From assembly GCA_035275345.1 (NCBI GenBank), contig DATEMY010000358.1, positions 8,314 through 72,313 on the forward strand: 64,000 nucleotides of DNA, written 5' to 3'. This document shows positions 6,855 through 34,337 of the stretch, one piece after another. This DNA is from Blastocatellia bacterium (GTDB lineage Bacteria; Acidobacteriota; Blastocatellia; RBC074). The translations under genes and the position numbers were made by a program. Each line of letters opens with the position of its first letter. The stretch's first letter is position 1. The notes beneath the pieces were generated by a model. That model searched no databases. It saw only the letters and a program-made list of their open reading frames with translations, and was not told the origin of the DNA.

Positions 6855-6858
6855 GGGA

Positions 6859-12030: not shown

Positions 12031-12200
12031 AAAAGGGGGAGACAAGGGGACAAGGGGACAAGGGGACAAGGAGACAAGGGGACAAAGTGGAAAGGACAGA
12101 AGGAAAATGAAGGAAGGGGAACGGGAGGACATATGTTTTTCTCCTCGTCCCCTTTTCTCCCTGTCCCATTGTCTCCCTGTCCCCTTGTCCCCTTGTCTCC
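12031..12200. repeat. Inverted array of imperfect octamer repeats: (GGGGACAA)x6 on the left arm and (TTGTCCCC)x6 on the right arm, separated by about 45 nt. Predicted long RNA/DNA hairpin inside the ACIII operon between actD and actE
   Basis: Read directly: left arm 12036-12098 is GGGGAGACAAGGGGACAAGGGGACAAGGGGACAAGGAGACAAGGGGACAAAGTGG. Right arm 12150-12200 is CCCTTTTCTCCCTGTCCCATTGTCTCCCTGTCCCCTTGTCCCCTTGTCTCC. Confidence 0.6.
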
Positions 12201-12208
12201 GCGTCTCC

Positions 12209-13962: not shown

Positions 13963-14007
13963 CCCAATCGCGGGATCCTTCGCCGCATGGCGGCCTGGTG
14001 AATTTAT

Positions 14008-14474
<467 letters not shown>

Positions 14475-14478
<4 letters not shown>

Positions 14479-17998: not shown

Positions 17999-18160
17999 AT
18001 CTGATGTCAATTGCGTGTTCAGGGTCAACCACGGGGAACACGTGGCCAAGAAAATTAAGAATTATTGCTCCCCTTCTTCATCTCCGCGCTCCCCGTGTTC
18101 CCAGTGGTTAGTCAGTCTTTGCCGTACATAGATGCGAAATCTGACATAGGAGGTTGGGTA

Positions 18161-18835: not shown

Positions 18836-18847
18836 GAGATTGAGGTC

Positions 18848-19132
18848 ATGCCGGAGCATATCGTCCCAATCAAAACCTACACGACCGTCCTGATCGCGCT
18901 GCTGGTATTAACCGCCACGACCTGCGCCGTCTCGTTCATCGATATGGGGAAGATGAACGCCGTGGTGGCGGTGGCGATCGCTTTCGTCAAGGCGTCGCTG
19001 GTCGCCTTGATCTTCATGCACCTGCGCTACAGCCGCCGATTGATGCTGGTCGTTGTGGCGGCCGGGCTGTTCTGGCTGGGCATATTGATTGCGTTGACGA
19101 TGAGTGATTACCTGACGCGCGGGTGGCAATGA
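18848..19132 (+). CDS. coxD: Cytochrome c oxidase subunit IV (small CtaF/CoxD-like 3-TM subunit)
   Basis: 94 aa, three hydrophobic helices, follows coxC by 12 nt. Confidence 0.55.
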   Translation: MPEHIVPIKTYTTVLIALLVLTATTCAVSFIDMGKMNAVVAVAIAFVKASLVALIFMHLRYSRRLMLVVVAAGLFWLGILIALTMSDYLTRGWQ

Positions 19133-19373
19133 ACCCGCGAGTGAATTTTGATTCTTGAAATAACGGTATGCGCAGGTCGCTCGGTGTCAGCCGAGTTTTT
19201 CTGCGCTATTCGCCGAGTTATTTGTTAATTGGGTCCGGTTATGTACCGACAGATTGAGAAGTTCGAATGTAAGATCGCTCGGAGGAAATCGTTGTGGCCT
19301 GTTACAGAAGGAGTTCCCCATACATTCCCGGCGAAAAAACAACAAAAATAATAAGCGGAGAGGAGAGGTGAAC

Positions 19374-20429
19374 ATGGCGACAACAGCATCGACATTGAGC
19401 GAGCGCCCGCCGGACGTCAAAGAGGCGCACATCATCTGGCTCACGGCCGGTCTGGGTTGCGACGGCGATACGATCTCGGTGACCAACGCCGAGCAGCCCA
19501 GCATCGAGGACGTGATTATGGGGGCGATTCCCGGGCTACCGAAAGCGCATCTGCACAACCCGGTGCTGGCCAAGGAAGTCGGCGACGAATTCATGGATTA
19601 CTTCTACCGCGCCGAAAGGGGAGAACTTGACCCTTTCATCTTCGTCGTCGAGGGGTCAATTCCGAACGAGACGATCAAGCGCGAGGGCTATTGGGCGGCG
19701 CAAGGAACCGACCCGGAGACGGGGCAGCCGATCACGACCTGCGAGTGGATAGACCGCCTGGCGCCGAAGGCCTGGGCGGTGGTGGCCGCTGGAACTTGCG
19801 CCACTTATGGCGGCATTCACGCGATGGAAGGCAATCCGACAGGCTGCATGGGCCTGGCCGATTATCTTGGTTGGGACTTTCGTTCAATCGCCGATATCCC
19901 GATCGTCAACGTGCCAGGATGCCCGGTGCAGCCGGACAACTTTATGGAGACCTTGCTTTACCTGCTCTATCAGGCGGCCGGACTGTCGCCGATGATCCCG
20001 CTGGACGACAAGCTGCGCCCGACATGGCTCTTCGGCAAAACGGTGCATGAAGGCTGCGACCGGGCGGGTTATTACGAGCAGAGCGATTTCGCCCATGAGT
20101 ACGGCTCGCCCAAGTGCCTGGTCAAGGTCGGCTGCTGGGGGCCGGTGGTCAACTGCAACGTGACCAAACGCGGCTGGATGCGCGGCGTCGGCGGCTGCCC
20201 CAACGTCGGCGGCATCTGCATCGCCTGCACCATGCCCGGTTTCCCGGATAAATTCATGCCGTTTATGGACGAACCGCCAGGCTCGGCTCTCTCGACGGGC
20301 TTGGTTGGCGTCTACGGGGGAATGATCCGCGCGCTACGTGGCATCACCAACAACACCGTCAACAAGGAACCGAGTTGGCGGCATCCGGGGCCGCGCCTCA
20401 CCACCGGCTATCGGCCGCGAACATATTAA
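19374..20429 (+). CDS. hhyS: [NiFe]-hydrogenase small subunit, group 1h (high-affinity, Tat-less)
   Basis: ATG at 19374 with AGGAGAGG RBS. N-terminus MATTASTLSERPPDVKEAHIIWLTAGLGCDGDT starts directly at the conserved Fe-S domain, with no RRxFxK Tat signal. 351 aa; Cys-rich C-terminal region. Confidence 0.85.
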   Translation: MATTASTLSERPPDVKEAHIIWLTAGLGCDGDTISVTNAEQPSIEDVIMGAIPGLPKAHLHNPVLAKEVGDEFMDYFYRAERGELDPFIFVVEGSIPNETIKREGYWAAQGTDPETGQPITTCEWIDRLAPKAWAVVAAGTCATYGGIHAMEGNPTGCMGLADYLGWDFRSIADIPIVNVPGCPVQPDNFMETLLYLLYQAAGLSPMIPLDDKLRPTWLFGKTVHEGCDRAGYYEQSDFAHEYGSPKCLVKVGCWGPVVNCNVTKRGWMRGVGGCPNVGGICIACTMPGFPDKFMPFMDEPPGSALSTGLVGVYGGMIRALRGITNNTVNKEPSWRHPGPRLTTGYRPRTY

Positions 20430-20434
20430 TCGAC

Positions 20435-20505
20435 GCCGCGGGCGGTAGCGAGAGTGGTTCCCTGAGCCGATCATCGAGGAAGTCACTCTCGCTACCGCCC
20501 GCGGC
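20435..20505 (+). repeat. Perfect 22-bp inverted repeat (GCCGCGGGCGGTAGCGAGAGTG ... CACTCTCGCTACCGCCCGCGGC) with a 27-nt loop in the hhyS-hhyL intergenic region
   Basis: Read directly from the sequence; sits between the hhyS stop (20429) and the hhyL start (20528). Confidence 0.5.
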
Positions 20506-20527
20506 GCCCACCTGGAAAAGAAGGATT

Positions 20528-22324
20528 ATGGCTACTGCGACTAAATCGATGAAATCGGTTCTGCCCAAAACCGAAGGGCTGGTGGAGATGAACTGGGACC
20601 CGATCACCCGCATCGTCGGCAGCCTCGGCGTCTTCACCAAGATTGATTTTAAGAACAGAGAGGTTAAGGAGTGTTACAGCACTTCTTCGATCTTTCGCGG
20701 CTACAGCGTCTTCATGAAGGGCAAAGACCCGCGCGACGCCCATTTCATCACCAGCCGAATTTGCGGCATCTGCGGCGACAACCATGCCACGTGCGCCGTC
20801 TACGCCCAGAACATGGCCTTCGGGGTGAGGCCGCCGAACCTGGGTGAGTGGATCATCAACCTCGGCGAGGCGGCGGAGTATATGTTCGACCACAACCTCT
20901 ATCAGGATAATCTGGTCGGCGTAGATTTCTGTGAACAGATGGTCAGGGAGACCAACCCGGGCGTGTGGGAGAAGGCGCAACGGAAAGAAGCGCCGAACGC
21001 CAAGCTGCACGGTTACCGAACCATCGCCGACATTATGACGGCGCTCAATCCGTTCAGCGGCGAGTTTTATCGCGAGACGCTGCAAATGAGCCGGCTGACG
21101 CGCGAGATGTTCTGTCTGATGGAAGGCCGCCACGTCCATCCTTCGACGCTCTATCCAGGCGGCGTGGGCACGGCGGGCACGTTGCAGGTCTTCACCGATT
21201 ACCTCGTGCGGCTGATGAAGTACGTCGAGTTTATGAAGAAGGTCGTGCCATTGCACGACGATCTCTTCGACTTCTTTTACGAAGCGCTGCCCGGTTACGA
21301 GAAGGTCGGCGAGCGGCGCGTGCTGTTGGGCTGCTGGGGATCGTTCAATGATCCTTACGTCTGCGATTACACCTACCGGAACATGCCCGAGTGGGGGCGC
21401 GCGATGTATGTCACGCCGAGCGTCATTGTTGACAACCAGGTCGTGACCAATGACCTGGTCAAGATCAACCTCGGCATCCGCATCCTGCTCGGAAGCTCCT
21501 ATTACGAGGATTGGGAGAATGGCGAGACCTTCGTCAGCCACGACCCGCTCGGCAATCCCGTGGACAAACGCCATCCCTGGAACCAGACCACGATTCCCAA
21601 CCCGCAGAAGCGGGATTTCGAGGGGAAGTACACGTGGGTGATGTCGCCGCGCTGGTACGACGAACGGACTGGCGATTACCTGGCGCTCGACACCGGCGGC
21701 GGGCCGTTGCCGCGGTTGTGGGCGACGGCGGCCAACGGACTCGTGGACATCGGCTACGTCAAGGCCACTGGTGGCGGCGTCGTCATAAATCTGCCGAAGA
21801 CCGCGACGCTGCCCGAAGTCTCGTTCGAGTGGAAAATTCCGAAATGGTCGAACGCCATTGAACGCAACCGCGCGCGAACCTACTTCCAGGCCTACGCGGC
21901 GGCCTGCGCGCTCTACTTCTGCGAACAGGCGCTGGGCGAGGTGCGGGCGGGCCACAATAAGACCTGGTCCGATTTCAAAGTTCCGGAGGAGGCCATCGGC
22001 TGCGGCTTCCACGAAGCTGTGCGCGGCGTGCTCTCGCACCACGTCGTGATCCGCGATGGCAAGATCGCCAATTATCACCCGTATCCGCCGACCCCGTGGA
22101 ACGCCAGCCCGCGCGACATCTACGGCACGCCGGGGCCGTATGAAGACGCGGTGCAGGGCACGCCGATCTTCGAAGAGAACGGGCCGGACAATTTCAAAGG
22201 GATAGACATCATGCGAACCGTGCGCAGCTTCGATCCGTGCCTGCCTTGCGGCGTGCATATGTACCTGGGCGCAGGCAAGACGCTGGAGACGCGCCATTCG
22301 CCAATGTTCGGGATGATTCAGTAA
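20528..22324 (+). CDS. hhyL: [NiFe]-hydrogenase large subunit, group 1h
   Basis: L1 motif TSRICGICGDNHA and L2 motif SFDPCLPCGVH match the group 1h/5 signatures. A 21-aa C-terminal extension follows His (cleaved by the maturation protease). 598 aa from the ATG at 20528. Confidence 0.9.
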   Translation: MATATKSMKSVLPKTEGLVEMNWDPITRIVGSLGVFTKIDFKNREVKECYSTSSIFRGYSVFMKGKDPRDAHFITSRICGICGDNHATCAVYAQNMAFGVRPPNLGEWIINLGEAAEYMFDHNLYQDNLVGVDFCEQMVRETNPGVWEKAQRKEAPNAKLHGYRTIADIMTALNPFSGEFYRETLQMSRLTREMFCLMEGRHVHPSTLYPGGVGTAGTLQVFTDYLVRLMKYVEFMKKVVPLHDDLFDFFYEALPGYEKVGERRVLLGCWGSFNDPYVCDYTYRNMPEWGRAMYVTPSVIVDNQVVTNDLVKINLGIRILLGSSYYEDWENGETFVSHDPLGNPVDKRHPWNQTTIPNPQKRDFEGKYTWVMSPRWYDERTGDYLALDTGGGPLPRLWATAANGLVDIGYVKATGGGVVINLPKTATLPEVSFEWKIPKWSNAIERNRARTYFQAYAAACALYFCEQALGEVRAGHNKTWSDFKVPEEAIGCGFHEAVRGVLSHHVVIRDGKIANYHPYPPTPWNASPRDIYGTPGPYEDAVQGTPIFEENGPDNFKGIDIMRTVRSFDPCLPCGVHMYLGAGKTLETRHSPMFGMIQ

Positions 22325-22342: not shown

Positions 22343-22975
22343 ATGAGTGAAGAGAACGCTTTCCAACGACTGAGTCAGCGCATTGAGCGTTTGGTCGCCC
22401 GGATCGAGGCGGCGCCAGATCCGAACGTACGGGCCGATGCGCTGTATTTGGCGCAGTCATTGATGGAACTGCACGGAGCTGGGCTGGATCGACTGATGGA
22501 AATCGTGGCGCAGGCCGGCGACTCAGGCTATGCCCTGATGGACGATTTCGCGGGCGACGATCTGGTGGCCAGCCTGTTATTGCTTTACGGGCTGCACCCG
22601 CACGATTTGGAAACGCGGGTGATGAAGGCTCTGGACAGGACACGTCCGCTTCTGCATTCACATGGCGGCGATGTTGAACTACTGGGCGTGGCCGATGGAG
22701 TGGTCAGATTGCGGTTGGCAGGAAGTTGCCGTAGCTGTCCTTCGTCAACAACGACGCTCAAGCTGGCCGTCGAGAAGGCGATCTATGAAGCGGCGCCCGA
22801 TGTGACGGAGATCGTCACCGAAGGCCAGATGGAGTCGGCGGAGCCGGCGTCGGCAAATGGCCTTGCGCAATTGGAGGGGTTGTCGAACTACGGCGGCTAT
22901 GACCAATGTGTGAGCGCCGGGCCGTCGAAGCGGAACCTTCCGCTAGTAACACTGAAAGGAGAGACTCATGGCTAA
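22343..22975 (+). CDS. NifU/Nfu-like Fe-S scaffold domain protein, hydrogenase-associated
   Basis: C-terminal HGGDVELLGVADGVVRLRLAGSCRSCPSSTTTLKLAVEKAI matches the NifU C-terminal domain (CxxC). Immediately downstream of hhyL. Confidence 0.55.
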   Translation: MSEENAFQRLSQRIERLVARIEAAPDPNVRADALYLAQSLMELHGAGLDRLMEIVAQAGDSGYALMDDFAGDDLVASLLLLYGLHPHDLETRVMKALDRTRPLLHSHGGDVELLGVADGVVRLRLAGSCRSCPSSTTTLKLAVEKAIYEAAPDVTEIVTEGQMESAEPASANGLAQLEGLSNYGGYDQCVSAGPSKRNLPLVTLKGETHG

Positions 22976-23192
22976 ACCGCGACGGGCGCCAGAAACGGCG
23001 GAAGTGTCGGAAAGGCCCATGCCTCATTCGGAAGCCGAGCTAGAGAAAGAGAGCAGAATGCCGGCGGGGAGAGACATTCACCGGAAACATAGGCGCACGC
23101 GGGCTGAAACCACGCCTGAGGACGTCACCGGCATCAACCCGGAAAAGATGCATCCGATTGATCCGAGGATGGTCTATATCCCGCCCGCTTGA
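22968..23192 (+). CDS. Small hypothetical protein (74 aa), weak call
   Basis: ATG overlaps the upstream stop (CATGGCTAA); basic, low complexity; no recognised motif. Confidence 0.2.
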   Translation: MAKPRRAPETAEVSERPMPHSEAELEKESRMPAGRDIHRKHRRTRAETTPEDVTGINPEKMHPIDPRMVYIPPA

Positions 23193-23889
23193 AGACACCG
23201 CATTCGGGAAGTTGTTTTTCGAGCCGGAGGCGCTAATGGATGACACTGAAAGAGCATCGCCGAATAGCTCATTCGCCGCGCTCCAGCGGTTCGCTCATGC
23301 GCGAAGGCCGGTCGAGCGATGCGATTTCTGTAGCGACGAATTGTACGAAGACCACCAGCACTTGATTGAACCTGAACAGCGGAGGCTGGTCTGTGTCTGC
23401 GGAGCATGCGCGATCCTGTTCGGCGGGCGCGGCGAGACCTCGTACAGGCGCGTCCCGCGACGCATCCTTTATTTGAAGGACTTTCGGCTGACGGACGCGC
23501 AGTGGGAAGGGCTACTGATCCCGATCCAATTGGCCTTCTTTTTTCATAGCAGCCCGGCGGGCAGAGTCATAGCGTTATATCCCAGCCCCGCCGGGCCGAC
23601 TGAATCACTGCTCGACCTCGCGATGTGGGAGGAGATCGCGCAAGACAATCCGGCGTTGAAACGAATGTCTCCGGATGTGGAAGGGCTGCTGGTCAATCGG
23701 ACCAGGCGCGCTGGCGGCGCGCCTGATTATTTCATCGCGCCGATTGACGAATGCTTCAAGCTGGCGGGGCTGATTCGCACGAACTGGCGAGGACTGTCCG
23801 GCGGCGAGGAGGTTTGGAAAGAGATCGGGCGGTTCTTCGCCGATTTGAAAGCGCGGTCAAATGAAGTCATGGAGGCGCCGCGTGCCTGA
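23158..23889 (+). CDS. Conserved hypothetical protein of group 1h hydrogenase clusters; four-Cys motif CDFC...CVCGAC
   Basis: Cys motif CDFCSDELYEDHQHLIEPEQRRLVCVCGACAILF suggests metal binding. Start may be the internal ATG at 23236. Confidence 0.45.
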   Translation: MIRGWSISRPLEDTAFGKLFFEPEALMDDTERASPNSSFAALQRFAHARRPVERCDFCSDELYEDHQHLIEPEQRRLVCVCGACAILFGGRGETSYRRVPRRILYLKDFRLTDAQWEGLLIPIQLAFFFHSSPAGRVIALYPSPAGPTESLLDLAMWEEIAQDNPALKRMSPDVEGLLVNRTRRAGGAPDYFIAPIDECFKLAGLIRTNWRGLSGGEEVWKEIGRFFADLKARSNEVMEAPRA

Positions 23890-24568
23890 CCTGAACTTCG
23901 AGATTGAAAGCGTAGCGCCGCGGCCTTACTCGGCGGCGCCATTGCTGAACTTCAAACTGCGCGTCGTCAACGCGACGCGCGAGCCAGCGCACACGGTCAT
24001 TCTGCGCTGCCAGATCATGCTGGACGTAACGCGCCGCCGTTACAACGCCGAAGAGCAAGAGCGGTTGCTCGACCTGTTCGGCGATCCGGAGCAGTGGGAT
24101 CGCACGCTGCGCAACATGCTATGGACGAACACAACCCTCGTGGTTCCCGCCTTCACCGGAGCCACAGTCGTTGATTTACAGGTCCAGTGCACGTTCGATT
24201 TCAACGTGGCGGCCACGAAGTATTTCGCCGGTTTGGAAGAAGGCGAAGTCCCACTCCTGCTGCTCTTCAGCGGGACGATCTTTTACGAGGCGGAAAGCGG
24301 CGCGTTGCAGGTGACGCAGATTCCCTGGGAGAAGGAGGCGCGCTATCGGCTGCCCGTACGAATGTGGCGCGAGATGATGGACATGTACTATCCCAACAGC
24401 GCGTGGCTGTGTTTGCGGCGTGACGTCTTCGACCGGCTGTACAGGTACAAAGTGCGCCGGGGCATTCCGACCTTCGAGCAGGCGTTGGAGAGAGTGATCC
24501 CGGACGTAAGCGCGGAGATGATGGAACCCGGGCTCGAAGATCCGACCTCGAAGGAGACGATTCACTGA
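23861..24568 (+). CDS. Conserved hypothetical protein, hydrogenase cluster-associated
   Basis: 235-aa ORF; alternative GTG at 23882 overlaps the upstream stop. No known catalytic motif recognised. Confidence 0.45.
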   Translation: MKSWRRRVPDLNFEIESVAPRPYSAAPLLNFKLRVVNATREPAHTVILRCQIMLDVTRRRYNAEEQERLLDLFGDPEQWDRTLRNMLWTNTTLVVPAFTGATVVDLQVQCTFDFNVAATKYFAGLEEGEVPLLLLFSGTIFYEAESGALQVTQIPWEKEARYRLPVRMWREMMDMYYPNSAWLCLRRDVFDRLYRYKVRRGIPTFEQALERVIPDVSAEMMEPGLEDPTSKETIH

Positions 24569-25500
24569 TGAACCTCAATCTCGTGAAGAAAATCGCCGAC
24601 GCCGTGCTCTATGAAGGTTATCTGCTCTATCCGTACCGTCCCTCGGCGATCAAGAACCGGCGGCGTTTCAACTTCGGCGTAGTTCATCCGCGGGATTACG
24701 GCCTGGCGCACGACGAGCTTTTCTGTATGCAGACCGAGTGTCTGGCGACGGGTAATCGGCGTATGGCGCTGGACGCGCGCGTGCGGTTCCTGCATATGAC
24801 GGCGCGCGAAGGCTGGCAGGAAGCGGTCGAGCGTGAGGTCGATGCGCCTGACCTCAATGTGGCTGATCTTCTCGCTTCGCCGCGACAAGTGAATTTCGCT
24901 TTTCCATTGAAGCAGGAGGAGAAGGGTGCGGGTGAAAGACCCGAGCAGGAAACCATCAGCGGCAGTATTGATATCAACGCTCATCAGCTTGCGGAGCAGG
25001 TATTCAAAATCACGGTTCGCATCCTGAACCTGACACCGCTGGCGGAAGCGCCGAGCGTGAGCCGCGATGAAGCGTTAACGCGCTCGATGGTTTCAACCCA
25101 CGCCATTCTGGCCGCGCGCGGCGGCGAGTTTGTTTCCCTGCTCGATCCGGCTGAGCCGTGGCGTGAAATGGCCGGCTCGTGCAGCAACATCGGGACGTAC
25201 CCAGTGCTGGTCGGCGCCGAAGGAGAGCGCGACGCGATGCTCTCATCGCCCATCATCCTTTACGACTACCCGCAGATCGCGCCGGAAAGCGCAGGCGATC
25301 TCTTCGACGGGACGGAAATTGATGAAATGCTCACGCTGCGCATCCTGACGCTGACGGACGAGGAGAAACGCGAGATGCGCGCTCGAGACGAACGAGCGCG
25401 GCGGATTCTGGAGCGGACTGAATCGCTGCCCGCCGAGCAATTGATGAAGCTGCACGGCGCGGCGCGCTGTTTGCGACAGGTCGAGGACGGCGCCAGATGA
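24568..25500 (+). CDS. Conserved hypothetical protein, hydrogenase cluster-associated
   Basis: ATGA overlap with the preceding ORF; 310 aa; N-terminus MNLNLVKKIADAVLYEGYLLYPYRPS. Confidence 0.45.
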   Translation: MNLNLVKKIADAVLYEGYLLYPYRPSAIKNRRRFNFGVVHPRDYGLAHDELFCMQTECLATGNRRMALDARVRFLHMTAREGWQEAVEREVDAPDLNVADLLASPRQVNFAFPLKQEEKGAGERPEQETISGSIDINAHQLAEQVFKITVRILNLTPLAEAPSVSRDEALTRSMVSTHAILAARGGEFVSLLDPAEPWREMAGSCSNIGTYPVLVGAEGERDAMLSSPIILYDYPQIAPESAGDLFDGTEIDEMLTLRILTLTDEEKREMRARDERARRILERTESLPAEQLMKLHGAARCLRQVEDGAR

Positions 25501-25841
25501 ACAAATGGGAATGGCAATCGCTCGAAGAACGAACGCCGCTGGAATCGGCCAACGCCGGCGGAATCGAAATCAGGCCGGGCGACCACGTCCGGCTGAGACC
25601 GCGAGCGGGCGGCGACATCTTTGACCTTGCTCTGGCCGGGCGCGCCGCCACGATTGAAGCTATCGAGCAGGATTACGAAGGCCGGATTCATTTTGCGGTG
25701 CTTGTGGACGACGACCCGGGCAAAGACCTGGGAGTCTTGAGGCAGCCCGGCCATCGCTTCTTCTTTGCGCCGGAAGAGATCGAACCGGCGCCGCCAGATG
25801 GAATTGACAAGAAGCCTTTACGTCGCGCTGGACCGCTCTGA
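25497..25841 (+). CDS. Small hypothetical protein (114 aa), hydrogenase cluster-associated
   Basis: ATGA overlap with the preceding ORF; last ORF before the palindromic element. Confidence 0.4.
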   Translation: MNKWEWQSLEERTPLESANAGGIEIRPGDHVRLRPRAGGDIFDLALAGRAATIEAIEQDYEGRIHFAVLVDDDPGKDLGVLRQPGHRFFFAPEEIEPAPPDGIDKKPLRRAGPL

Positions 25842-25960: not shown

Positions 25961-26488
25961 ATGACATCGCCGAAAATTCTGATCGCCGGAATCGGGAATA
26001 TATTCCTGGCCGATGACGGCTTTGGTTGCGCGGTGGCCGGGCGGTTGGCGCGGCGTCCATTGCCCGATGGCGTGCGAGTGGTTGATTTCGGCGTTCGCGG
26101 CTTTGATCTGGCTTACGCATTGATGGACGGTTACGACGTGACAATCCTGATTGACGCCGTTACGCGAGGCGCCGAGCCGGGCGCGCTTTACGTCATCGAG
26201 CCGGACTTGAACGAACTGAACGCGCCGGACGCGCAGGCGATAATGGTCGAAGCTCATGCGATGAATCCGATGCGAGCGCTCGCTCTGGTCAAGTCAATGA
26301 ACGGCGAATTGAAGCGGATTCTGCTGGTGGGTTGCGAGCCGGCGACGCTCGGCCCGGAGGAAGGCCGGATGGGCCTCAGTGAAACGGTGGAAGCGGCGGT
26401 GGATGGAGCGGTCGAGATGGTCGAATCGCTCGTCGCGGAAATACTCGGCGATCAGCGCAAGACGGGCGCTGGCGCGAACCATTATTGA
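25961..26488 (+). CDS. hupD: Hydrogenase maturation endopeptidase (HupD/HyaD/HybD family)
   Basis: N-terminal ILIAGIGNIFLADDGFG motif and overall size (175 aa) typical of [NiFe] large-subunit C-terminal processing proteases. Confidence 0.8.
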   Translation: MTSPKILIAGIGNIFLADDGFGCAVAGRLARRPLPDGVRVVDFGVRGFDLAYALMDGYDVTILIDAVTRGAEPGALYVIEPDLNELNAPDAQAIMVEAHAMNPMRALALVKSMNGELKRILLVGCEPATLGPEEGRMGLSETVEAAVDGAVEMVESLVAEILGDQRKTGAGANHY

Positions 26489-26503
26489 GGGAGGATGGTA
26501 AGG

Positions 26504-26668
26504 ATGAAATTCAATATTAATGTTTACCCCTTCGGCATTGGCCGTAGAAAGAAGACCGATCGTCTGTTGTGGAAGATTATCGGCGGCGCGGCGCTAGCCG
26601 CCGCGGGGGTCGGAGTGATCAGGATGCTCCCGGACATCAAGCGATACATCCGCATCAGCATGATGTGA
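26504..26668 (+). CDS. Possible small ORF (54 aa) not in the ORF track; weak
   Basis: ATG preceded by GGGAGGATGGTAAGG; encodes MKFNINVYPFGIGRRKKTDRLLWKIIGGAALAAAGVGVIRMLPDIKRYIRISMM with one hydrophobic segment. Confidence 0.2.
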   Translation: MKFNINVYPFGIGRRKKTDRLLWKIIGGAALAAAGVGVIRMLPDIKRYIRISMM

Positions 26669-26677
26669 GTGAGGCGT

Positions 26678-27079
26678 ATGCGAATTATCAAACGCAATGG
26701 CCACGATCCATGGAAGGGGCTGGCGGCCGGCGCCGCCGGAGGGCTAGTCGCCGCCTGGGTGATGAATCAGTTCCAGGCTCTGTGGAGCGGGAAGACTCAC
26801 GGGATTGAAAGGTCGCATGGCGCCCAATCTTTGCAGCCTGGCTCGCCGCGACACAGCGTTGCGCGCGCGCTACGGGAACGCGGCGGAGATCGGGAGAGTG
26901 ACAACGCGGCGGTGAGGGTGGCCCGTATTGTTTCCGAAAACGTCTTCTGCCATGGGCTGACCGAAAGCGAGAAGGAGAAGGCGGGCGCGGTCGCACATTA
27001 CGCGATGGGCGTGACGTCAGGCGCCATCTACGGCGCGGCGGCGGAGATGGCGCGGCGCGCGGTGCGGCGCGCGCTGTGA
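26678..27079 (+). CDS. Hypothetical Gly/Ala-rich membrane-associated protein
   Basis: ORF of about 133 aa (GTG 26669 or ATG 26678); no catalytic motif recognised. Confidence 0.35.
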   Translation: MRIIKRNGHDPWKGLAAGAAGGLVAAWVMNQFQALWSGKTHGIERSHGAQSLQPGSPRHSVARALRERGGDRESDNAAVRVARIVSENVFCHGLTESEKEKAGAVAHYAMGVTSGAIYGAAAEMARRAVRRAL

Positions 27080-27092: not shown

Positions 27093-27644
27093 ATGCGATA
27101 CCGCGTTGACTCGAGCCGGAGCCGGTTCATCGTCCAGGCTTTCGCCAAGGGGCTGCTATCGGCCTTCGGGCACAACCCGAGGCTCGCCGTCCGCGACTTT
27201 GAAGGCAAGGCCGAGTTCGACCCCGCCGCGCCCAACGCCGCGTCGCTGAGGATGGCGGCGCGGGTCGATTCGCTCGCCTTGATTGACGACGTGAGCGAGA
27301 AGGATCGGCGCGAGATCGAACGCGTGACGCGCGAAGAGTTGCTCGAAGCGGCCCGTTATCCCGAAATCGTTTTTCAGAGCGCGATCGTCACGGCGCGTCA
27401 AGCGGCTGAAGGCCGATACCAGGTGAGGATCGTCGGCGATCTGTCTCTACACGGAGTGACACTCGAACTCGTGATTGATGTGATGGCGACTTTTGATGGA
27501 GATGACCTGCGCGCGCAGGGTGGTTTCCCGCTGCGGCTGACCGATTTCAACATCCGCCCAATTTCCGTCGCCGGCGGCCTGCTCAAGCTCAAGGATGAAG
27601 TTCAACTCTCGTTCGACATCCTGGCTCGCGCGCCGCGCGAGTGA
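27093..27644 (+). CDS. YceI-family (polyisoprenoid-binding, lipocalin-like) protein
   Basis: 183 aa; pattern GHNPRLAVRDFEGKAEFDP ... RLTDFNIRP resembles YceI-like domains. Confidence 0.6.
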   Translation: MRYRVDSSRSRFIVQAFAKGLLSAFGHNPRLAVRDFEGKAEFDPAAPNAASLRMAARVDSLALIDDVSEKDRREIERVTREELLEAARYPEIVFQSAIVTARQAAEGRYQVRIVGDLSLHGVTLELVIDVMATFDGDDLRAQGGFPLRLTDFNIRPISVAGGLLKLKDEVQLSFDILARAPRE

Positions 27645-27683: not shown

Positions 27684-28031
27684 ATGCACGAGCTTTCCAT
27701 CGCAATCAGCATCATCGAAGGCGCCACGGAAGAGGCGCGGCGTTATGGCGACGTCAAGGTCAACGCCGTGCATCTCAAACTGGGCGCGCTTTCCGGGGTG
27801 GCCAAAGACGCGCTGCTCTTCTCTTACGAGCTGGCATGCGAGGGAACGGCGCTGGAAGGTTCACGACTGGTCATCCAGGAGGTTCCGGTCATGACCTTTT
27901 GTCCGCGCTGCGAAATCGAGCGGGCGCCCGCTTCGATTCAACGGCTGTCTTGTCCGGTCTGCGGCGCGCCGACGCCGCAAGTCGCGCAAGGCAGGGAAAT
28001 CGAGCTGGTCGCTTTGGAGGTCAACGAATGA
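27684..28031 (+). CDS. hypA: Hydrogenase nickel-insertion protein HypA
   Basis: Canonical MHELSIA N-terminus and CPRCE...CPVCG zinc site; 115 aa. Confidence 0.85.
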   Translation: MHELSIAISIIEGATEEARRYGDVKVNAVHLKLGALSGVAKDALLFSYELACEGTALEGSRLVIQEVPVMTFCPRCEIERAPASIQRLSCPVCGAPTPQVAQGREIELVALEVNE

Positions 28032-28675
28032 ACACTACGCCACGCCTGGTCGAAGTCAGACGGAACGCGCTTAAACAGAATGACATCCTGGCTCGCGGGT
28101 TGCGCGACCGTTTCCGCGAGGCCGGCGTCCGCGTCGTCAGCCTGGTTTCAAGCCCCGGCTCGGGCAAAACCACGTTGTTGGAAAAGACGCTGGCGGCGTT
28201 GCGGCGGCAATTGCGTGTGGCCGTTATGGTAGGCGATCTCGCGACCGAGAACGACGCCGCGCGGCTCGCCCGAACCGAGGCGCCGGTCAAACAGATCATC
28301 ACCGGCGCGGTTTGTCATCTCGACGCCGCGATGATCGAGCGGGCGCTCGAAGGCTGGGACCTCGACGCGCTCGACCTGTTGCTGATCGAAAACGTCGGCA
28401 ACCTGGTCTGCCCGGCGAGCTACGACCTCGGCGAGGGGTCGCGGGCGGTGTTGCTTTCGGCGCCCGAGGGCGAAGACAAGCCGCTCAAATACCCGACGAT
28501 CTTCAACACGGCGGACGTGGCCGTGATCACCAAGATTGATCTGGCCGGCGCGGTTGAATTAGATCTTGACGTCGCGCGCGAAAACATTCAACGGGTGCGG
28601 CCCGGCATGCCGACCATCGAGGTTTCAGCGAAGACCGGCGAAGGGATGGAGGCTTGGCTGCGGTTTCTTCAATGA
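28028..28675 (+). CDS. hypB: Hydrogenase nickel-incorporation GTPase HypB (second copy)
   Basis: SSPGSGKTTLL P-loop, CH metal motif, ENVGNLVCPASYDLGE, ITKIDL; 215 aa. Divergent from the copy at 1-562. Confidence 0.9.
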   Translation: MNTTPRLVEVRRNALKQNDILARGLRDRFREAGVRVVSLVSSPGSGKTTLLEKTLAALRRQLRVAVMVGDLATENDAARLARTEAPVKQIITGAVCHLDAAMIERALEGWDLDALDLLLIENVGNLVCPASYDLGEGSRAVLLSAPEGEDKPLKYPTIFNTADVAVITKIDLAGAVELDLDVARENIQRVRPGMPTIEVSAKTGEGMEAWLRFLQ

Positions 28676-30972
28676 CGACACGAGTGCAAATTTTGGTTCG
28701 GGGCGTCGTGCAAGGCGTGGGGTTTCGCCCATACATCTTTTCGTTGGCCCGGCGTCGCGCGCTGCGCGGGCAGGTGGTTAACAACGCCGCGGGCGTTTTG
28801 ATCGATGTCGAGGGCGAAACGACCGCCGTCGAGCAATTCATTAACGAGATCGAACTGGGGCCGCCGCCGCTCTCGCGGATAGAATCGGTCGAGCGCCGCG
28901 ACAACCTGGCTCCCGCCGACTATCCGGAATTCCGCATCGCCGAGAGCGAATCCGCCGGACGGAAGTCAGTTCACATCGCGGCCGACATCGGCGTCTGCGC
29001 CGATTGCCTGAGGGAACTCTTCGATTCGCGCGACCGGCGCTATCGCTATCCGTTCATCAACTGCGTCAACTGCGGCCCGCGCTTCACGATCATCGAGGAC
29101 GTTCCGTATGACCGCGCGAAGACGACGATGCGCGAATTCGTTATGTGCAATGAGTGCCGCGCCGAATACGAAAATCCTTTCGACCGCAGATTTCACGCCG
29201 AGCCGACGGCCTGCGCGGTTTGCGGCCCGTGGCTTTATCTGACGGACGGGAACGGGCGCGAGCTTGAAACCGGCGACGGCGCGATCACCCGCTCGCGCCG
29301 TCTGCTTTTGAACGGAAAGATTCTCGCCGTCAAAGGCGTCGGCGGATTCCATCTCGCCTGCGACGCGACAAACGCCGAGGCGGTCGGGCGATTGAGGCGG
29401 AAAAAATATCGTGAAGACAAGCCGTTCGCGCTGATGGCCGGTTCGATCGAGGCGATTGAGGAACATTGTTCCGTCTCGACATTCGAGCGTGATTTGTTGC
29501 TCTCCGAGCGCCGCCCCGTAGTGTTGCTCGCGCGCAGGCCCGGTTCGTCCCTGTCGAGCCGGTCGAGCGCGGTGGCGCCCGGTCTGAACTCGCTCGGCTT
29601 TATGCTGCCCTACGCGCCGCTGCATTATCTGTTGCTGGAAAACCTCGACCGCCCGCTGGTCATGACCAGCGGGAACGTCTCGGACGAACCGATCTGCCAC
29701 GAGGATCGAGACGCGCTGGAGCGATTGAGTAAAATCGCCGACCACTTTCTGCTTCACGACCGGCGCATTCACGTCCGCGCGGATGATTCGGTGGTTTGCG
29801 CGCGCGGGAACAAAGAGCTGATCCTGCGCCGCGCGCGCGGCTATGCGCCCCACGCCTTGAAAACCCCTTTCAAATTCGAGCGCGAAATTCTGGCCTGTGG
29901 CGCGGAACTCAAAAACACTTTTTGTCTGACGCGCAGAGATCACGCCTTCATCAGCCATCACATCGGCGACCTGGAAAACCTGGAGACGCTCCGTTCGTTC
30001 GAGCGCGGGATCGAGCATTTCAAACGGCTCTTCAACCTGCGTCCCGAAATCATCGCCCATGACCTGCATCCGGAATACATCTCGACTAAATACGCGATGG
30101 CGCTCGGCGATGAAATGGTCAAAGTCGGCGTGCAGCATCATCACGCGCATATTGCCGGTTGCATGGCCGACAACGGCGTCGATGGCCAGGTGATCGGCGT
30201 GGCAATGGACGGGCTGGGTTACGGGACGGACGGACGTTTGTGGGGATGCGAATTTTTCGTCGCCGAATACGCGCGGGCCGAGCGCGTCACGCATCTCGAA
30301 TACGCGCCGATGCCCGGCGGAGCGAAAGCTATCCGCGAGCCATGGCGGATGGCGGCGATCCACCTGCAGCGGGCGTTGGGCGACGAGGCCTTCGATCTGA
30401 ATCTCGATTTCGTGAAACGAATGGATCGGCGCGCTTACGCGACGTTGCGCCGGATGGCCGAACGGGGAGTCAACAGTCCCGAAACGTCGAGCATGGGGCG
30501 GCTCTTCGACGCCGTGGCGAGTCTCGCCGGCGTGCGCGACGTTGCGCGGTATGAAGGCCAGGCCGCGATCGAGTTTGAGATGGCGGCGGACCCAAGCCAG
30601 AAGAGCGGTTATGAGTTCGACTGTTCCGGCAAGATCATCAAGCCGTCGCCGGTAATTCGCGGCGTCGTCGCCGACCTGCTCCGCCACGTCCCAACGCCGG
30701 TGATCGCGGCGAAGTTTCACAACGCGGTCGCCAGCCTGATTTTCCAGACCGCGCGGCGGATCAGGGCCGAGCGGGGGCTTCATCGCGTGGCCCTTTCGGG
30801 CGGCGTCTTTCAGAATCGTCTGCTTTTGAATCGGGCGATGAGGTTGCTCAAAGCCGACGGCTTCGAGGTCCTCACACACGGCCGCGTGCCGCCCAACGAC
30901 GGCGGCGTCTCGTTCGGCCAGGCGGTCGTGGCGGGCGCGCTGACCAGAGCGGACCGGGCAGGAGGTGTTTGA
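28672..30972 (+). CDS. hypF: Carbamoyltransferase HypF (second copy)
   Basis: Same domain architecture as the first HypF (acylphosphatase, two Zn fingers, YrdC, Kae1-like). ATGA overlap with hypB. Confidence 0.9.
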   Translation: MTTRVQILVRGVVQGVGFRPYIFSLARRRALRGQVVNNAAGVLIDVEGETTAVEQFINEIELGPPPLSRIESVERRDNLAPADYPEFRIAESESAGRKSVHIAADIGVCADCLRELFDSRDRRYRYPFINCVNCGPRFTIIEDVPYDRAKTTMREFVMCNECRAEYENPFDRRFHAEPTACAVCGPWLYLTDGNGRELETGDGAITRSRRLLLNGKILAVKGVGGFHLACDATNAEAVGRLRRKKYREDKPFALMAGSIEAIEEHCSVSTFERDLLLSERRPVVLLARRPGSSLSSRSSAVAPGLNSLGFMLPYAPLHYLLLENLDRPLVMTSGNVSDEPICHEDRDALERLSKIADHFLLHDRRIHVRADDSVVCARGNKELILRRARGYAPHALKTPFKFEREILACGAELKNTFCLTRRDHAFISHHIGDLENLETLRSFERGIEHFKRLFNLRPEIIAHDLHPEYISTKYAMALGDEMVKVGVQHHHAHIAGCMADNGVDGQVIGVAMDGLGYGTDGRLWGCEFFVAEYARAERVTHLEYAPMPGGAKAIREPWRMAAIHLQRALGDEAFDLNLDFVKRMDRRAYATLRRMAERGVNSPETSSMGRLFDAVASLAGVRDVARYEGQAAIEFEMAADPSQKSGYEFDCSGKIIKPSPVIRGVVADLLRHVPTPVIAAKFHNAVASLIFQTARRIRAERGLHRVALSGGVFQNRLLLNRAMRLLKADGFEVLTHGRVPPNDGGVSFGQAVVAGALTRADRAGGV

Positions 30973-30975: not shown

Positions 30976-31236
30976 ATGTGCCTTGCGATTCCGGGAAGGA
31001 TTGTCGAAATAGTTGACGAAGCCAACGGCGTCGCCAAAGTGGATGTGAGCGGCGTCCGTCGCAACGTCAACGTCGCATTGCTCGACGACGCGGGCGTGGG
31101 CGATTACGTGTTGATCCACGTCGGCTTCGCGTTGAGCAAGGTTGATGAAAAAGAAGCCGAAGAGACGCTGCGGGCGCTTCGGGAGTTGGGATCATACGAA
31201 CAGGAGTTCGAGCAGTTCAAAAGCTCCCTGACCTGA
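30976..31236 (+). CDS. hypC: HypC (second copy)
   Basis: [13 protein letters not shown]-terminus; 86 aa. Confidence 0.85.
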
Positions 31237-31312: not shown

Positions 31313-32008
31313 ATGAAAATGAGCAACCTGTCAGAAGATTTCTCGAAGACCTTTTATCCGTTCCTCCACGAAGGCGCCAATCGTGGCGACGGCCACAATA
31401 GTTTGATGGATGAGTTGGGATACGCGCTCGTCGCGAAAGCCCGCGAGAGCGCCGAGGTCAAGACGCGTTTCTTTGAAGAGAACATGGAGACAATTTTGCG
31501 GGCCACGCTGGCGATGGCGCGCGCATTCAATGGCGGAGGCAAACTGCTGGTTTGCGGCAACGGGGGGAGCGCGACTGACGCCGGGCATGTCGCCACCGAA
31601 TTCATGCACCCGATTACCGTCGGTCGCCGCGCGCTGCCCGCGATCTCGCTCACGAACGACGCCTCGACGATGACCGCGGTGGCCAACGATGTCAGCTTCG
31701 CCGACGTCTTCTCGCGGCAGATCATCGCGCTCGGCAAGACTGGAGACATGCTGCTGGGCGTTTCGACCAGCGGCAATTCCGAAAACCTGTTGCGCGCGTT
31801 CGAGACCGCGAAGCGGATGGGATTAATCACGATCGGTTATGCGGGCGGCGATGGCGGCAGGATGGTCTCGAGCGACAGGGTGGATTACTGCCTGACGGTC
31901 CCGACCACCAGCGTCCATCGCGTGCAGGAAACGCAGGTCACGCTCTATCACGTGATGTGGGATCTGGTTCACGAACTGCTTGGGCGCGCTTCCCCGCTGG
32001 CTGGTTGA
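31313..32008 (+). CDS. gmhA: SIS-domain protein, GmhA (phosphoheptose isomerase)-like, embedded in the hyp operon
   Basis: LLVCGNGGSATDAGH and GVSTSGNS motifs of the GmhA/DiaA SIS family. ATG at 31313 after AAGGAGGG. Confidence 0.7.
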   Translation: MKMSNLSEDFSKTFYPFLHEGANRGDGHNSLMDELGYALVAKARESAEVKTRFFEENMETILRATLAMARAFNGGGKLLVCGNGGSATDAGHVATEFMHPITVGRRALPAISLTNDASTMTAVANDVSFADVFSRQIIALGKTGDMLLGVSTSGNSENLLRAFETAKRMGLITIGYAGGDGGRMVSSDRVDYCLTVPTTSVHRVQETQVTLYHVMWDLVHELLGRASPLAG

Positions 32009-32042: not shown

Positions 32043-33182
32043 ATGAAACACATCGACGAATATCGCGCGGGCGAGATCGCCGGACGGCTGGCCGAGGAAA
32101 TCGCCCGGCTCTCGGCCCGGATAAGCGATCCGCCGCTCAAGCTGATGGAGGTTTGTGGCGGCCACACTCACACGATCTTCAAATACGGCATTGAAGATCT
32201 GCTGCCGCCGAACATCCAGATGATTCACGGGCCGGGTTGTCCGGTGTGCGTCATTCCGCTGGGCCGCGTGGATGACGCGCTGGCCATCGCCAAACGCGAA
32301 GGCGTCATTTTCACCACCTTCGGCGATATGATGCGCGTGCCCGGATCAAAGACGAGCCTGCTGCAGGCGAAGGCCGAAGGCGCCGACGTACGGATTGTCT
32401 ATTCGCCGCTCGACGCATTGAAGCTGGCGAAGCGGAACCCTGATCGTGATGTGGTCTTTCTGGCGCTCGGTTTTGAAACCACCGCGCCTTCGACCGCGCT
32501 GACCGTGGTGGCGGCGGCGAAAGAGGGCGTCGGGAATTTCAGCGTCTTTTGCAACCACATCATGATTGTGCCGGCGTTGAAGGCGCTGCTCGATTCGCCC
32601 GACCTGAGGCTGGACGGCTTCGTCGGGCCTGGACATGTCAGTACGGTCATCGGCGCGCTCGTTTACGAGTTCGTGCCGCGCGAGTATGGCAAGCCGCTGG
32701 TCGTTTCGGGCTTCGAGCCGCTCGACGTTCTGCAATCGGTGGCGATGATTATCAAACAGATTGTCGAATCCCGAGCCGAGGTCGAAAACCAATACGCGCG
32801 CTGTGTCCCGCGCGACGGCAACGCGAACGCGCTGGCGGCGATCCGCGAGGTCTTCGAAGTCCGCGATTATTTCGAGTGGCGCGGCCTGGGATCGATCGCG
32901 CGCAGCGGGTTGAAGTTGAGAAAGGAATACAGCCGGTTCGACGCCGAGTCGCGCTTCGCCGCGCCGGGATTGCGGATCGCCGATCCGAAGGCTTGCCAGT
33001 GCGGCGAGATTTTGAAAGGCGTAAAGAAACCGTGGGAGTGTAAGGTCTTCGGCACGGCTTGCACGCCGGAAACACCGATCGGCTCCTGCATGGTCTCGTC
33101 CGAAGGCGCATGCGCGGCCTATTACAATTTCGGACGGTTGTCGAAGGCGGCCGAGCGGTCGGCGGCGGTAGCCAGGCCGTGA
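32043..33182 (+). CDS. hypD: HypD (second copy)
   Basis: CGGHTHT, GPGCPVC and other HypD motifs; 379 aa. Confidence 0.9.
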   Translation: MKHIDEYRAGEIAGRLAEEIARLSARISDPPLKLMEVCGGHTHTIFKYGIEDLLPPNIQMIHGPGCPVCVIPLGRVDDALAIAKREGVIFTTFGDMMRVPGSKTSLLQAKAEGADVRIVYSPLDALKLAKRNPDRDVVFLALGFETTAPSTALTVVAAAKEGVGNFSVFCNHIMIVPALKALLDSPDLRLDGFVGPGHVSTVIGALVYEFVPREYGKPLVVSGFEPLDVLQSVAMIIKQIVESRAEVENQYARCVPRDGNANALAAIREVFEVRDYFEWRGLGSIARSGLKLRKEYSRFDAESRFAAPGLRIADPKACQCGEILKGVKKPWECKVFGTACTPETPIGSCMVSSEGACAAYYNFGRLSKAAERSAAVARP

Positions 33183-33251: not shown

Positions 33252-34337
33252 ATGGAATTCACCACTTCACCACTCTTCGAACGCGTCGAACGCGCGCGGC
33301 GAAGAAAACCGAGAGTAATAGATGAATTCATCACGCTCGCGCACGGCAGCGGCGGCAAGGCTATGCATGAGCTGGTTGAAGGGCTCTTTCTCGAATACTT
33401 CCGCAACCCACTGCTCGAAAAGTTGGAAGATCAGGCTGTGTTTGAAATTGCGGGCGATTGCCGCGCGTCGCGCCTCGCTTTTACAACGGATTCATACGTC
33501 GTCACGCCGCTCTTCTTTCCTGGCGGGGATATCGGCCGCCTGGCCGTTTGCGGCGCGGTCAACGACCTGGCGATGAGCGGCGCGCGTCCGCTCTACCTCT
33601 CAGCAGGTTTCATCATCGAGGAAGGGTTTCCGATCGCCGACCTCAAACGCGTTCTGCAATCAATGCGCGACGCGGCGGAAGAAGCCGGCGCGCGGATCGT
33701 CACCGGCGACACCAAGGTTGTGCAACGAGGAGGCGCGGACAAGCTATTCATCAACACGGCGGGAATAGGCGTGATTGAACACGACGCTCGTATCTCGGCC
33801 GCGAACGTCCGCCCGGGCGACAAAATCATTCTGAGCGGCGCGATGGGCGATCACGGCGCGACGATTATGATCGCGCGCGGCGAGTTGGGACTGGAGACCA
33901 ACCTCTGCAGCGATGTCGCGCCGCTCTGGTCGCTGGTCGAAACGATGCTCGACGCGCCGACCGGGATTCACGCGATGCGCGACCCGACGCGCGGCGGCGT
34001 AGCGACGACGCTGAACGAGATCGCGCTCGCTTCCGAAGTCTGCCTGATAATTGACGAGCGGGCTTTGCCGGTGCGCGATGAAGTCAAAGGCGCATGCGAA
34101 ATCCTGGGACTCGACCCGCTTTACATCGGCAATGAAGGCAAGCTGGTGGCCATGGCAGCGGCTGAGGCCGCAGATCGGATCGTCGAGCGGATGCGCCAAC
34201 ACCCTCTGGGCCGCGAGGCGCGAGTCATCGGCGAGGCGCAGGCCGAACCGATGGGCATCGTCGTTCTGAAAACTGGCTTCGGCGGGACGCGGATCGTTGA
34301 TATGCTCGCCGGCGAGCAACTGCCGCGCATATGCTGA
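33252..34337 (+). CDS. hypE: HypE (second copy)
   Basis: PurM-like; ends in PRIC; 361 aa. Confidence 0.9.
   Translation: MEFTTSPLFERVERARRRKPRVIDEFITLAHGSGGKAMHELVEGLFLEYFRNPLLEKLEDQAVFEIAGDCRASRLAFTTDSYVVTPLFFPGGDIGRLAVCGAVNDLAMSGARPLYLSAGFIIEEGFPIADLKRVLQSMRDAAEEAGARIVTGDTKVVQRGGADKLFINTAGIGVIEHDARISAANVRPGDKIILSGAMGDHGATIMIARGELGLETNLCSDVAPLWSLVETMLDAPTGIHAMRDPTRGGVATTLNEIALASEVCLIIDERALPVRDEVKGACEILGLDPLYIGNEGKLVAMAAAEAADRIVERMRQHPLGREARVIGEAQAEPMGIVVLKTGFGGTRIVDMLAGEQLPRIC

Follow-up and report, generated by a model that had tools for sequence, protein, structure and literature searches.

Much of the uptake of atmospheric H2 by soils is attributed to group 1h [NiFe]-hydrogenases, which also help dormant soil bacteria to persist. 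Here we describe a locus of this type in a stretch of 64,000 nucleotides from a Blastocatellia bacterium (contig DATEMY010000358.1 of assembly GCA_035275345.1), the whole of which we call the window. Two of its genes, hhyS and hhyL, very probably encode a group 1h (formerly group 5, actinobacterial-type or Hhy) uptake hydrogenase, as part of a complete and apparently functional operon from a member of the Acidobacteriota, probably of the Blastocatellales.

Several described systems are close enough to serve as a guide. Our literature search turned up no solved Hhy complex beyond PDB 5AA5, the HofK/HofG enzyme of Cupriavidus necator (Ralstonia eutropha) H16. The proximal cluster of this enzyme is held by three cysteines and an aspartate, and the aspartate is required for O2-insensitivity (PMC11023054). 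Within the Acidobacteriota, three group 1h isolates, Pyrinomonas methylaliphatogenes K22, Edaphobacter aggregans and Acidobacteriaceae bacterium KBS 83, consume atmospheric H2 with apparent Michaelis constants, Km(app), of 35, 95 and 172 nM (PMC8027828). They share their phylum with the window organism, which is uncultured, and Pyrinomonas shares its class as well; the classification of P. methylaliphatogenes in group 1h has been confirmed experimentally (PMC5037454). In Mycobacterium smegmatis the gene for the NifU-like protein HhyE is essential for Hhy activity, and truncated forms of HhyE are known (PMC6883350). Two further aerobic enzymes invite comparison. The group 1l hydrogenase Hyl of Hymenobacter roseosalivarius resembles the enzyme expected here in being cytosolic, aerobic and of trace-gas type, and it was modelled on 5AA5, but its locus has five short transmembrane open reading frames (ORFs) between the subunit genes and a Rieske protein, HylE (bioRxiv 10.1101/2020.08.06.239558), neither of which is present in the locus described here. 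Huc, the group 2a enzyme of M. smegmatis (PDB 7UTD), is likewise an aerobic, O2-insensitive, high-affinity uptake hydrogenase, but its three clusters, unlike those predicted here, are of the [3Fe-4S] type, and it possesses a HucM scaffold (PMC11023054).

The subunit genes of the window (lengths in amino acids, aa) are the following:

19374..20429, + strand: hhyS, assigned to group 1h, [NiFe]-hydrogenase small subunit, 351 aa (614 bits to 5AA5 chain A; subunit alignment)
20528..22324, + strand: hhyL, assigned to group 1h, large subunit, 598 aa (1133 bits to 5AA5 chain C; identities; tree; motifs)

An earlier note on this DNA, made from the letters alone, had placed the pair at 19374-22324, and the two genes, each opening with an ATG, lie exactly there. 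The start of hhyS at ATG 19374 has a strong ribosome-binding site, GGAGAGGAGAGG, just before it, and 98 bp separate the two genes. An independent gene call reproduced the boundaries of both on a public contig (ENA assembly ERZ27257057, k141_2494077) that is 99.9% identical to the window but not the same sequence; we refer to parts of this contig as L090 and L091 (99.97% for the latter part).

The large subunit carries most of the evidence for classification. HhyL contains the L1 motif TSRICGICGDNHA (residues 75-87) and the L2 motif SFDPCLPCGVH (residues 567-577), exact matches to the two signatures that the note had called diagnostic, and with them the four ligands of the NiFe centre, Cys79 and Cys82 in L1 and Cys571 and Cys574 in L2. 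A tail of 21 residues follows His577, the predicted endopeptidase cleavage site. Both motifs are invariant in 25 of 27 core-1h sequences, the other two (a Blastocatellia metagenome-assembled genome, or MAG, and a cluster representative) having a single L1 substitution each, and they differ in every sequence outside the core that we examined. Among solved structures, 5AA5 matched HhyL with 1133 bits (E = 0), the next structure with about 157 bits, and Huc with only 124 bits.

Identity to reference enzymes points the same way. In our own alignment, which included the group 1h enzymes of C. necator, Mycobacterium intracellulare and Streptomyces fungicidicus and non-1h enzymes of Escherichia coli and C. 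necator, HhyL was 79% identical to C. necator HofG and 77% and 76% identical to the S. fungicidicus and M. intracellulare large subunits, respectively, but only 27-28% identical to E. coli Hyd-1 (1d) and Hyd-2 (1c) and to C. necator MBH (1d) and RH (2b). Plasmid records divided similarly, with 72-78% for the 1h enzymes of Cupriavidus, Streptomyces, Embleya, Kitasatospora, Methylocystis and Mycobacterium and less than 28% for all others. The best protein matches were soil-metagenome sequences (95-97%), a Blastocatellales MAG (94%), Blastocatellia MAGs (86-88%) and a Pyrinomonas MAG (85%), and Acidobacteriaceae HhyL sequences were 81-84% identical. Among 1.84 billion cluster representatives (50%-identity clusters) there was one full-length member of the core family, at 70%; the next full-length clusters stood at 55% and at 42% or less by the search figures, and at 52% and at 41% or less in our own alignment.

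In a neighbour-joining tree, HhyL falls among Blastocatellales and Blastocatellia MAGs within a tight core-1h clade, to which the three reference 1h enzymes also belong and which a long branch parts from all other clusters. HydDB classifies by k-nearest neighbours (PMC5037454), a principle that we applied through nearest neighbours by identity and in the tree rather than by a HydDB run. Because these neighbours all belong to group 1h, HydDB would return 1h for HhyL. Groups 1h and 1l, its sister, share less than 40% identity (bioRxiv 10.1101/2020.08.06.239558), and group 1l is therefore excluded. The assignment to group 1h made in the earlier note thus stands; neither of the outcomes that it had named as refuting, another group for the large subunit or a Tat signal on an upstream start, was borne out.

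The small subunit is equally close to the C. necator enzyme. HhyS aligns without gaps to chain A of 5AA5 over residues 9-347 (614 bits, E = 1e-183), the next structure scoring about 160 bits. By alignment, the predicted ligands are Cys29, Asp32, Cys142 and Cys183 for the proximal cluster, Cys261, Cys275, Cys282 and Cys285 for the medial cluster, and His225, Cys228, Cys248 and Cys254, all conserved, for the distal cluster. The GCDGD sequence (Cys29-x-x-Asp32), identical in 5AA5 chain A, stands at a place where the other groups, among them the group 1d enzymes of E. coli and C. necator, show C-x-x-C, and Cys275 (in GGCPN), the fourth medial ligand, is replaced by proline in group 1d. HhyS is thus predicted to have a proximal cluster bound by three cysteines and an aspartate, in an all-[4Fe-4S] relay, as 5AA5 has.

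The called HhyS protein has no twin-arginine (Tat) leader, just as the note had claimed; E. coli HyaA and HybO and C. necator HoxK, aligned with it, have RRxFLK leaders of about 45 aa. Such a leader is absent from all aligned 1h small subunits, and the N-terminus of HhyS lines up with theirs. We also checked whether an alternative upstream start might supply a Tat signal, and no start does. The sole in-frame extension, from TTG 19254, would add 40 aa that are polar and lack both an S/T-R-R-x-F-L motif and a hydrophobic stretch; it contains 'SRRK' and 'KRRG' and would run across the AT-rich leader and the ribosome-binding site. Unlike HyaA, HybO and HoxK, whose C-terminus bears a hydrophobic anchor, HhyS has no C-terminal membrane anchor, the Kyte-Doolittle hydropathy maximum over 19 residues being 1.16 (1.07 in HhyL), and a Pfam search of every ORF from 19 to 34 kb found no Ni-hydrogenase cytochrome b domain. 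In these respects too, C. necator HofK/HofG, with the same L1 and L2 and neither Tat leader nor anchor, is like the window enzyme.

Anyone comparing these small subunits in public records should be aware of their names. In RefSeq/PLSDB the small subunit genes at 13914-14969 of the C. necator H16 locus (L081), 10908-11963 of the M. intracellulare locus (L087) and 1796-2884 of the S. fungicidicus locus (L089) are all called 'hydrogenase expression protein HypE'. On C. necator HofK and on the other two small subunits this name is a propagated misannotation.

Behind hhyL the operon continues without a change of strand:

22343..22975, + strand: NifU-like putative Fe-S protein, HhyE equivalent, 210 aa (Pfam NifU, 76.9 bits)
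22968..23192, + strand: small conserved ORF, 74 aa, without cysteine and of no known family (homologues in related loci)
23236..23889, + strand: DUF5947 protein with two CxxC motifs (Pfam DUF5947, 227 bits)
23882..24568, + strand: DUF6084 protein, conserved group 1h companion (Pfam DUF6084, 300 bits; conserved in related loci)
24568..25500, + strand: conserved ORF, 310 aa, equivalent to the N-terminal part of a single ORF of 448-476 aa in C. necator and Mycobacterium
25497..25841, + strand: conserved ORF, 114 aa, equivalent to the C-terminal part of the same ORF
25961..26488, + strand: HupD/HycI-type maturation endopeptidase, 175 aa (TIGR00072, 121.9 bits, above cut-off; Pfam HycI)
26495..26668, + strand: DUF6893 small protein with one predicted transmembrane helix (Pfam on the 99.9%-identical contig and relatives; hydropathy maximum 1.89)
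26669..27079, + strand: DUF1440-like membrane protein, 133-136 aa (translations compared with L083 and L084; DUF1440 in relatives)
27093..27644, + strand: YceI-like protein of the polyisoprenoid-binding family (Pfam YceI, 63.6 bits; weak PDB matches to YceI)
27684..28031, + strand: hypA, nickel metallochaperone, 115 aa, two CxxC (translation; Pfam HypA on the L090 counterpart)
28028..28675, + strand: hypB, nickel-inserting GTPase, 215 aa (Pfam cobW/HypB; L090 gene call)
28672..30972, + strand: hypF, carbamoyltransferase (five HypF Pfam domains)
30976..31236, + strand: hypC, chaperone (Pfam HupF_HypC, 100.9 bits)
31319..32008, + strand: SIS-domain, GmhA-like gene between hypC and hypD (Pfam SIS_2; TIGR00441 gmhA, 163.6 bits, below the cut-off of 209)
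32043..33182, + strand: hypD (Pfam HypD, 528 bits)
33252..34337, + strand: hypE, at whose end, 34337, the operon ends (Pfam AIRS and AIRS_C)

The earlier note had described conserved ORFs of unknown function and a hupD protease downstream of hhyL, followed by a hyp set containing a gmhA-like gene, and had called the arrangement typical of group 1h loci. Pfam and TIGR00072 recover the ORFs and the protease, the hyp set reads hypABFC-SIS-DE, and the order of the core genes is identical to that of the 1h loci of C. necator pHG1, M. intracellulare and S. fungicidicus. The core accessory genes also recur in nearly all of 80 GTDB loci. In C. necator the genes for NifU, DUF5947, DUF6084, the unknown ORF, the protease, HypF, HypC, the SIS protein (in the same position), HypD and HypE follow one another as they do here; the C. 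necator locus differs in lying on a megaplasmid, in having hypA and hypB at its end, in lacking the YceI, DUF6893, DUF1440 and small-ORF genes, and in having a single ORF of 476 aa where the window has 310 and 114 aa. The two window genes overlap by ATGA, and the split is consistent in acidobacterial relatives, the second ORF being 111, 101 and 117 aa long in L082, L083 and L084, three related hhy loci. The 310-aa ORF matched nothing in Pfam, NCBIfam or PDB, but tblastn finds it at 41-54% identity in nearly all related loci, including C. necator. PDB sequence searches with this ORF, DUF6084 and DUF5947 gave nothing usable.

The NifU-like gene begins 19 bp past the hhyL stop codon, and the plasmid locus of M. 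intracellulare likewise has a NifU-like gene after hhyL. We considered the possibility that mycobacterial HhyE is a fusion of NifU and DUF5947, which would have accounted for the CxxC pairs absent here, and rejected it, M. intracellulare having a NifU protein of 301 aa and a separate DUF5947. The DUF5947 gene is a conserved group 1h companion, present in 77 of 81 related loci. Homologues of the 74-aa ORF, with a strongly conserved C-terminus, TGINPEKMxPIDPRMVYIPPA, occupy the same place in L082, L083 and L084 and in some 12 further related loci (about 15 in all). The DUF6893, DUF1440 and YceI-like genes are Acidobacteria-typical extras of the cassette. The YceI-like protein has no signal peptide, its YceI domain beginning at residue 3; of 84 related hhy loci, most of them acidobacterial, 48 contain a homologue, whereas the 1h loci of C. 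necator, Mycobacterium and Streptomyces lack one. A literature search for a link between YceI and hydrogenases found none.

We suggest the following working model. HypABCDEF would assemble the NiFe(CN)2CO centre, which HhyL would hold through Cys79, Cys82, Cys571 and Cys574, and the HupD endopeptidase, predicted to cleave the C-terminal tail of HhyL, would trim the 21 residues beyond His577 to give the finished large subunit. H2 would be split in the cytoplasm, the enzyme having neither Tat export nor a cytochrome b subunit nor a membrane anchor. Electrons would leave through the three [4Fe-4S] clusters of HhyS, the proximal one being held by three cysteines and Asp32, and would then most likely be handed, aided by the NifU-like HhyE, to menaquinone and from there to a terminal oxidase. 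The locus combines family membership, intact ligands, absent export and anchor signals, a full maturation set and 1h synteny. O2-insensitivity and coupling to the respiratory chain, on the other hand, are what we would expect of such an enzyme by comparison with its relatives.

It is at the question of affinity that the readings part. The earlier note had gone from group membership to a capacity for trace-gas H2 scavenging. This is a well-founded prediction, three acidobacterial isolates having values of 35-172 nM, but '1h' alone does not mean 'high affinity'. On balance, and with some reserve, we expect that the affinity of the enzyme, given its membership of group 1h, would be sufficient for atmospheric H2, at 0.53 ppmv.

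A less probable view, but one to be taken seriously, is that the enzyme is genuinely of group 1h and yet of low affinity, like that of C. necator, and that its substrate is not atmospheric H2 but H2 raised locally, such as that released by fermenters or nitrogen fixers in soil microsites. The Km of the C. necator enzyme is 3.6 µM, and its host cannot oxidise atmospheric H2 (PMC7174314; also PMC11023054). It is also 79% identical to HhyL, with the same motifs and Fe-S ligands, and because so close an enzyme has low affinity, affinity is not readable from sequence. The NifU-like partner in the window is short, as in C. necator: it has a single CxxC (Cys129-Cys132), that of NifU, and lacks the C-terminal CxxC pair, whereas full-length HhyE typically carries two extra C-terminal CxxC motifs (PMC6883350) and the M. 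intracellulare protein has 301 aa. A Huc-like hydrogenase on the near-identical contig (see below) could do the scavenging instead. These features of the C. necator enzyme and of HhyE weigh against a high-affinity enzyme in the window, and the case for a working group 1h operon is further weakened by an in-frame loss in the DUF1440 gene (about 57 residues relative to the 191-193 aa of L083 and L084, with the C-terminal hydrophobic segments gone), by an organism known from metagenome contigs only, and by a tree that is neighbour-joining with a small reference set, neither HydDB nor maximum-likelihood.

Against a low-affinity enzyme, all three of the acidobacterial 1h isolates tested take up atmospheric H2, including Pyrinomonas of the same class (PMC8027828), and in our tree HhyL groups with acidobacterial sequences and not with the Burkholderiales branch. 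The NifU-like protein of Streptomyces is also short, yet streptomycetes are reported, in references given by PMC8027828, to be high-affinity H2 oxidisers. Moreover, the C. necator Km was obtained with the soluble form, and membrane association raises apparent affinity (PMC7174314). With the reserve stated above, we favour the reading of a group 1h enzyme that would use atmospheric H2.

Much less probable is that a horizontally acquired cassette has decayed or fallen silent here and that what remains of it yields no active enzyme. The cassette does occur in different genomic contexts among relatives 94-97% identical, which suggests mobility, and the DUF1440 gene carries its in-frame deletion, although this shortening could be either a real deletion or a strain variant. 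Nevertheless, all 19 genes of the operon are intact ORFs with gene-like codon bias (G+C at third codon positions, GC3, of 0.67-0.80), and every metal ligand is conserved. HhyL is 97% identical to that of a relative, with a DNA divergence of about 6.5% in hhyL and 7-18% elsewhere in the locus; protein identity of this order despite DNA divergence across the locus indicates strong purifying selection on HhyL. Finally, that HhyL belongs to another oxygen-tolerant uptake group (1l, 1f, 1d or 2a) and resembles 1h in its motifs only is scarcely conceivable, since we found no support for it and it is contradicted by the full-length identity of 76-79% to three 1h references, by the limits of less than 40% between 1h and 1l and of 28% or less between HhyL and the 1c, 1d and 2b references, by the 124 bits with Huc against 1133 with 5AA5, and by a locus that has neither the interposed transmembrane ORFs nor the Rieske HylE of group 1l.

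The surroundings of the operon are also respiratory. From position 20 to 34337 the + strand forms one respiratory block, in which the following features precede hhyS; the last line concerns the near-identical contig, which extends further upstream:

20-5542, + strand: second hyp set, without a SIS gene, comprising hypB (cut by the window start), hypF (550-2901), hypC (3087-3353), hypD (3350-4483) and hypE (4487-5542)
6192-14478, + strand: Alternative Complex III (ACIII)-like cluster, comprising a multihaem cytochrome c, ActB, ActC, ActD, ActE, an ActF-like protein and a 156-aa ORF
14475-19132, + strand: caa3-type haem-copper oxidase, directly 5' of hhyS, including CoxI (16280-17998), CoxIII (18161-18835) and CoxIV (18848-19132)
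19118..19300, + strand: intergenic control region (terminator scan; alignment of upstream regions)
L091 1-2276, upstream of window position 1: [NiFe] large subunit, partial (469 aa, truncated at the contig end), then genes for a HycI protease and HypA

Within the ACIII-like cluster, the multihaem cytochrome c is ActA/QrcA-like, ActB (1066 aa) joins a molybdopterin-like and a 4Fe-4S part and has an N-terminus of TAT-variant type, ActC is of the NrfD type, ActD lies at 11455-11997 and ActE is a cytochrome c; the ActF-like ORF of 401 aa has no Pfam match. Subunit II of the oxidase (599-601 aa) fuses an N-terminal SCO1/SenC-like domain, CoxII and a C-terminal cytochrome c.

The second hyp set implies a second [NiFe]-hydrogenase just upstream of the window, and the near-identical contig has one there. 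Among solved structures, M. smegmatis Huc (group 2a) comes closest to its large subunit, with 308 bits where others reach about 170, and this subunit carries the L1 motif PRICGICSTSQ, the L2 motif SHDACLVCTVH and a 12-residue tail. By these sequence features we regard it as probably Huc-like and of group 2, without a finer subgroup, and separate from the group 1h operon.

Wherever a related oxidase locus is long enough to tell, ACIII and oxidase are linked. The linkage of oxidase and hydrogenase is far rarer. Among 80 metagenome oxidase loci and L084, only L084 and L095 (about 85-93% DNA identity) have a hydrogenase next after the oxidase; the others that reach far enough lack it. None of the 80 GTDB hhy loci has an oxidase or ACIII cluster within 10 kb of hhy, the only match being a weak COX3 of 33% identity in L054, and relatives with 94% and 96% HhyL identity have none near hhy either. 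The window operon thus abuts ACIII and caa3 in a way that sets it apart from these loci.

Two terminator-like hairpins (19118-19139 and 19179-19196, by terminator scan) follow the gene for cox subunit IV. They are succeeded by a conserved block of about 95 nt upstream of hhyS (19207-19300), which can be aligned among loci whose upstream neighbours differ. It includes a perfect palindrome, CGGTTATGTACCG, at 19236-19248, 126-138 nt before the hhyS ATG and in single copy in the window; the palindrome occurs once upstream of hhyS in L082, L083 and L084 only and in none of 87 other loci. We consider that the block with CGGTTATGTACCG may serve as promoter or operator for hhy. The hairpins, together with this operon-specific block, suggest that hhy is transcribed separately from cox.

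We considered the adjacency of cox and hhy as a conserved functional unit and rejected it: it is missing from the 80 GTDB loci and from close relatives, and the hairpins separate the two. Because the adjacency is confined to a narrow lineage and the upstream block travels with hhy whatever its neighbour, we take hhy to be a movable operon, complete in itself, whose juxtaposition to the oxidase genes is recent and lineage-specific. A bolder idea is that the cassette, beside ACIII and caa3 and together with the Huc-like hydrogenase on the other side, might form an 'H2-to-O2' respiratory supercluster on one strand, in which the YceI-like, DUF6893 and DUF1440 proteins would attach Hhy, itself without an anchor, to the membrane and pass its electrons to menaquinone. 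Analogues for such a docking link are HucM for Huc and the quinone-extracting CoxG for CO dehydrogenase. We regard this idea, drawn by analogy, as doubtful.

The remainder of the window turns to other functions. Rfam and tRNA scans of the window found no RNA genes. After hypE, from 34385 to 47791, the gene content shifts to carbohydrate and uptake functions:

35590-38451, - strand: PcRGLX-like rhamnogalacturonan-lyase-type protein
41772-44831: CarboxypepD_reg TonB-dependent receptor

The same interval also contains genes for DUF1961, a fusion of a helix-turn-helix domain with shikimate kinase, an AraC regulator, an AMP-binding enzyme and an amidohydrolase. From 47880 to 64000 the G+C content drops from about 0.61 to 0.52-0.55. 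Genes here for an ornithine cyclodeaminase, an MbtH-like protein, a pyridoxal-phosphate-dependent enzyme, an adenylating enzyme and an 884-aa class-III aminotransferase fusion suggest a small cluster for an amino-acid-derived metabolite or siderophore. Beyond them lie a 716-aa ORF, two response regulators, of which one is a sigma-54 activator, and a protein with a CHAT domain.

The gene hhyL has already been documented in Acidobacteria subdivision 4 (Pyrinomonas) and in other subdivisions (PMC8027828). The window adds one more uncultured Blastocatellales lineage to the likely H2 scavengers, which is conceptually nothing new. Some novelty attaches only to the possible lineage-specific H2-to-O2 supercluster and to the YceI-like, DUF6893 and DUF1440 genes. 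With hhy, ACIII, caa3 and a second hyp set on one strand, the locus offers a natural example for the link between Hhy and the respiratory chain, and the cytoplasmic YceI-like gene that recurs in acidobacterial hhy loci is a testable lead on how that link may be made.

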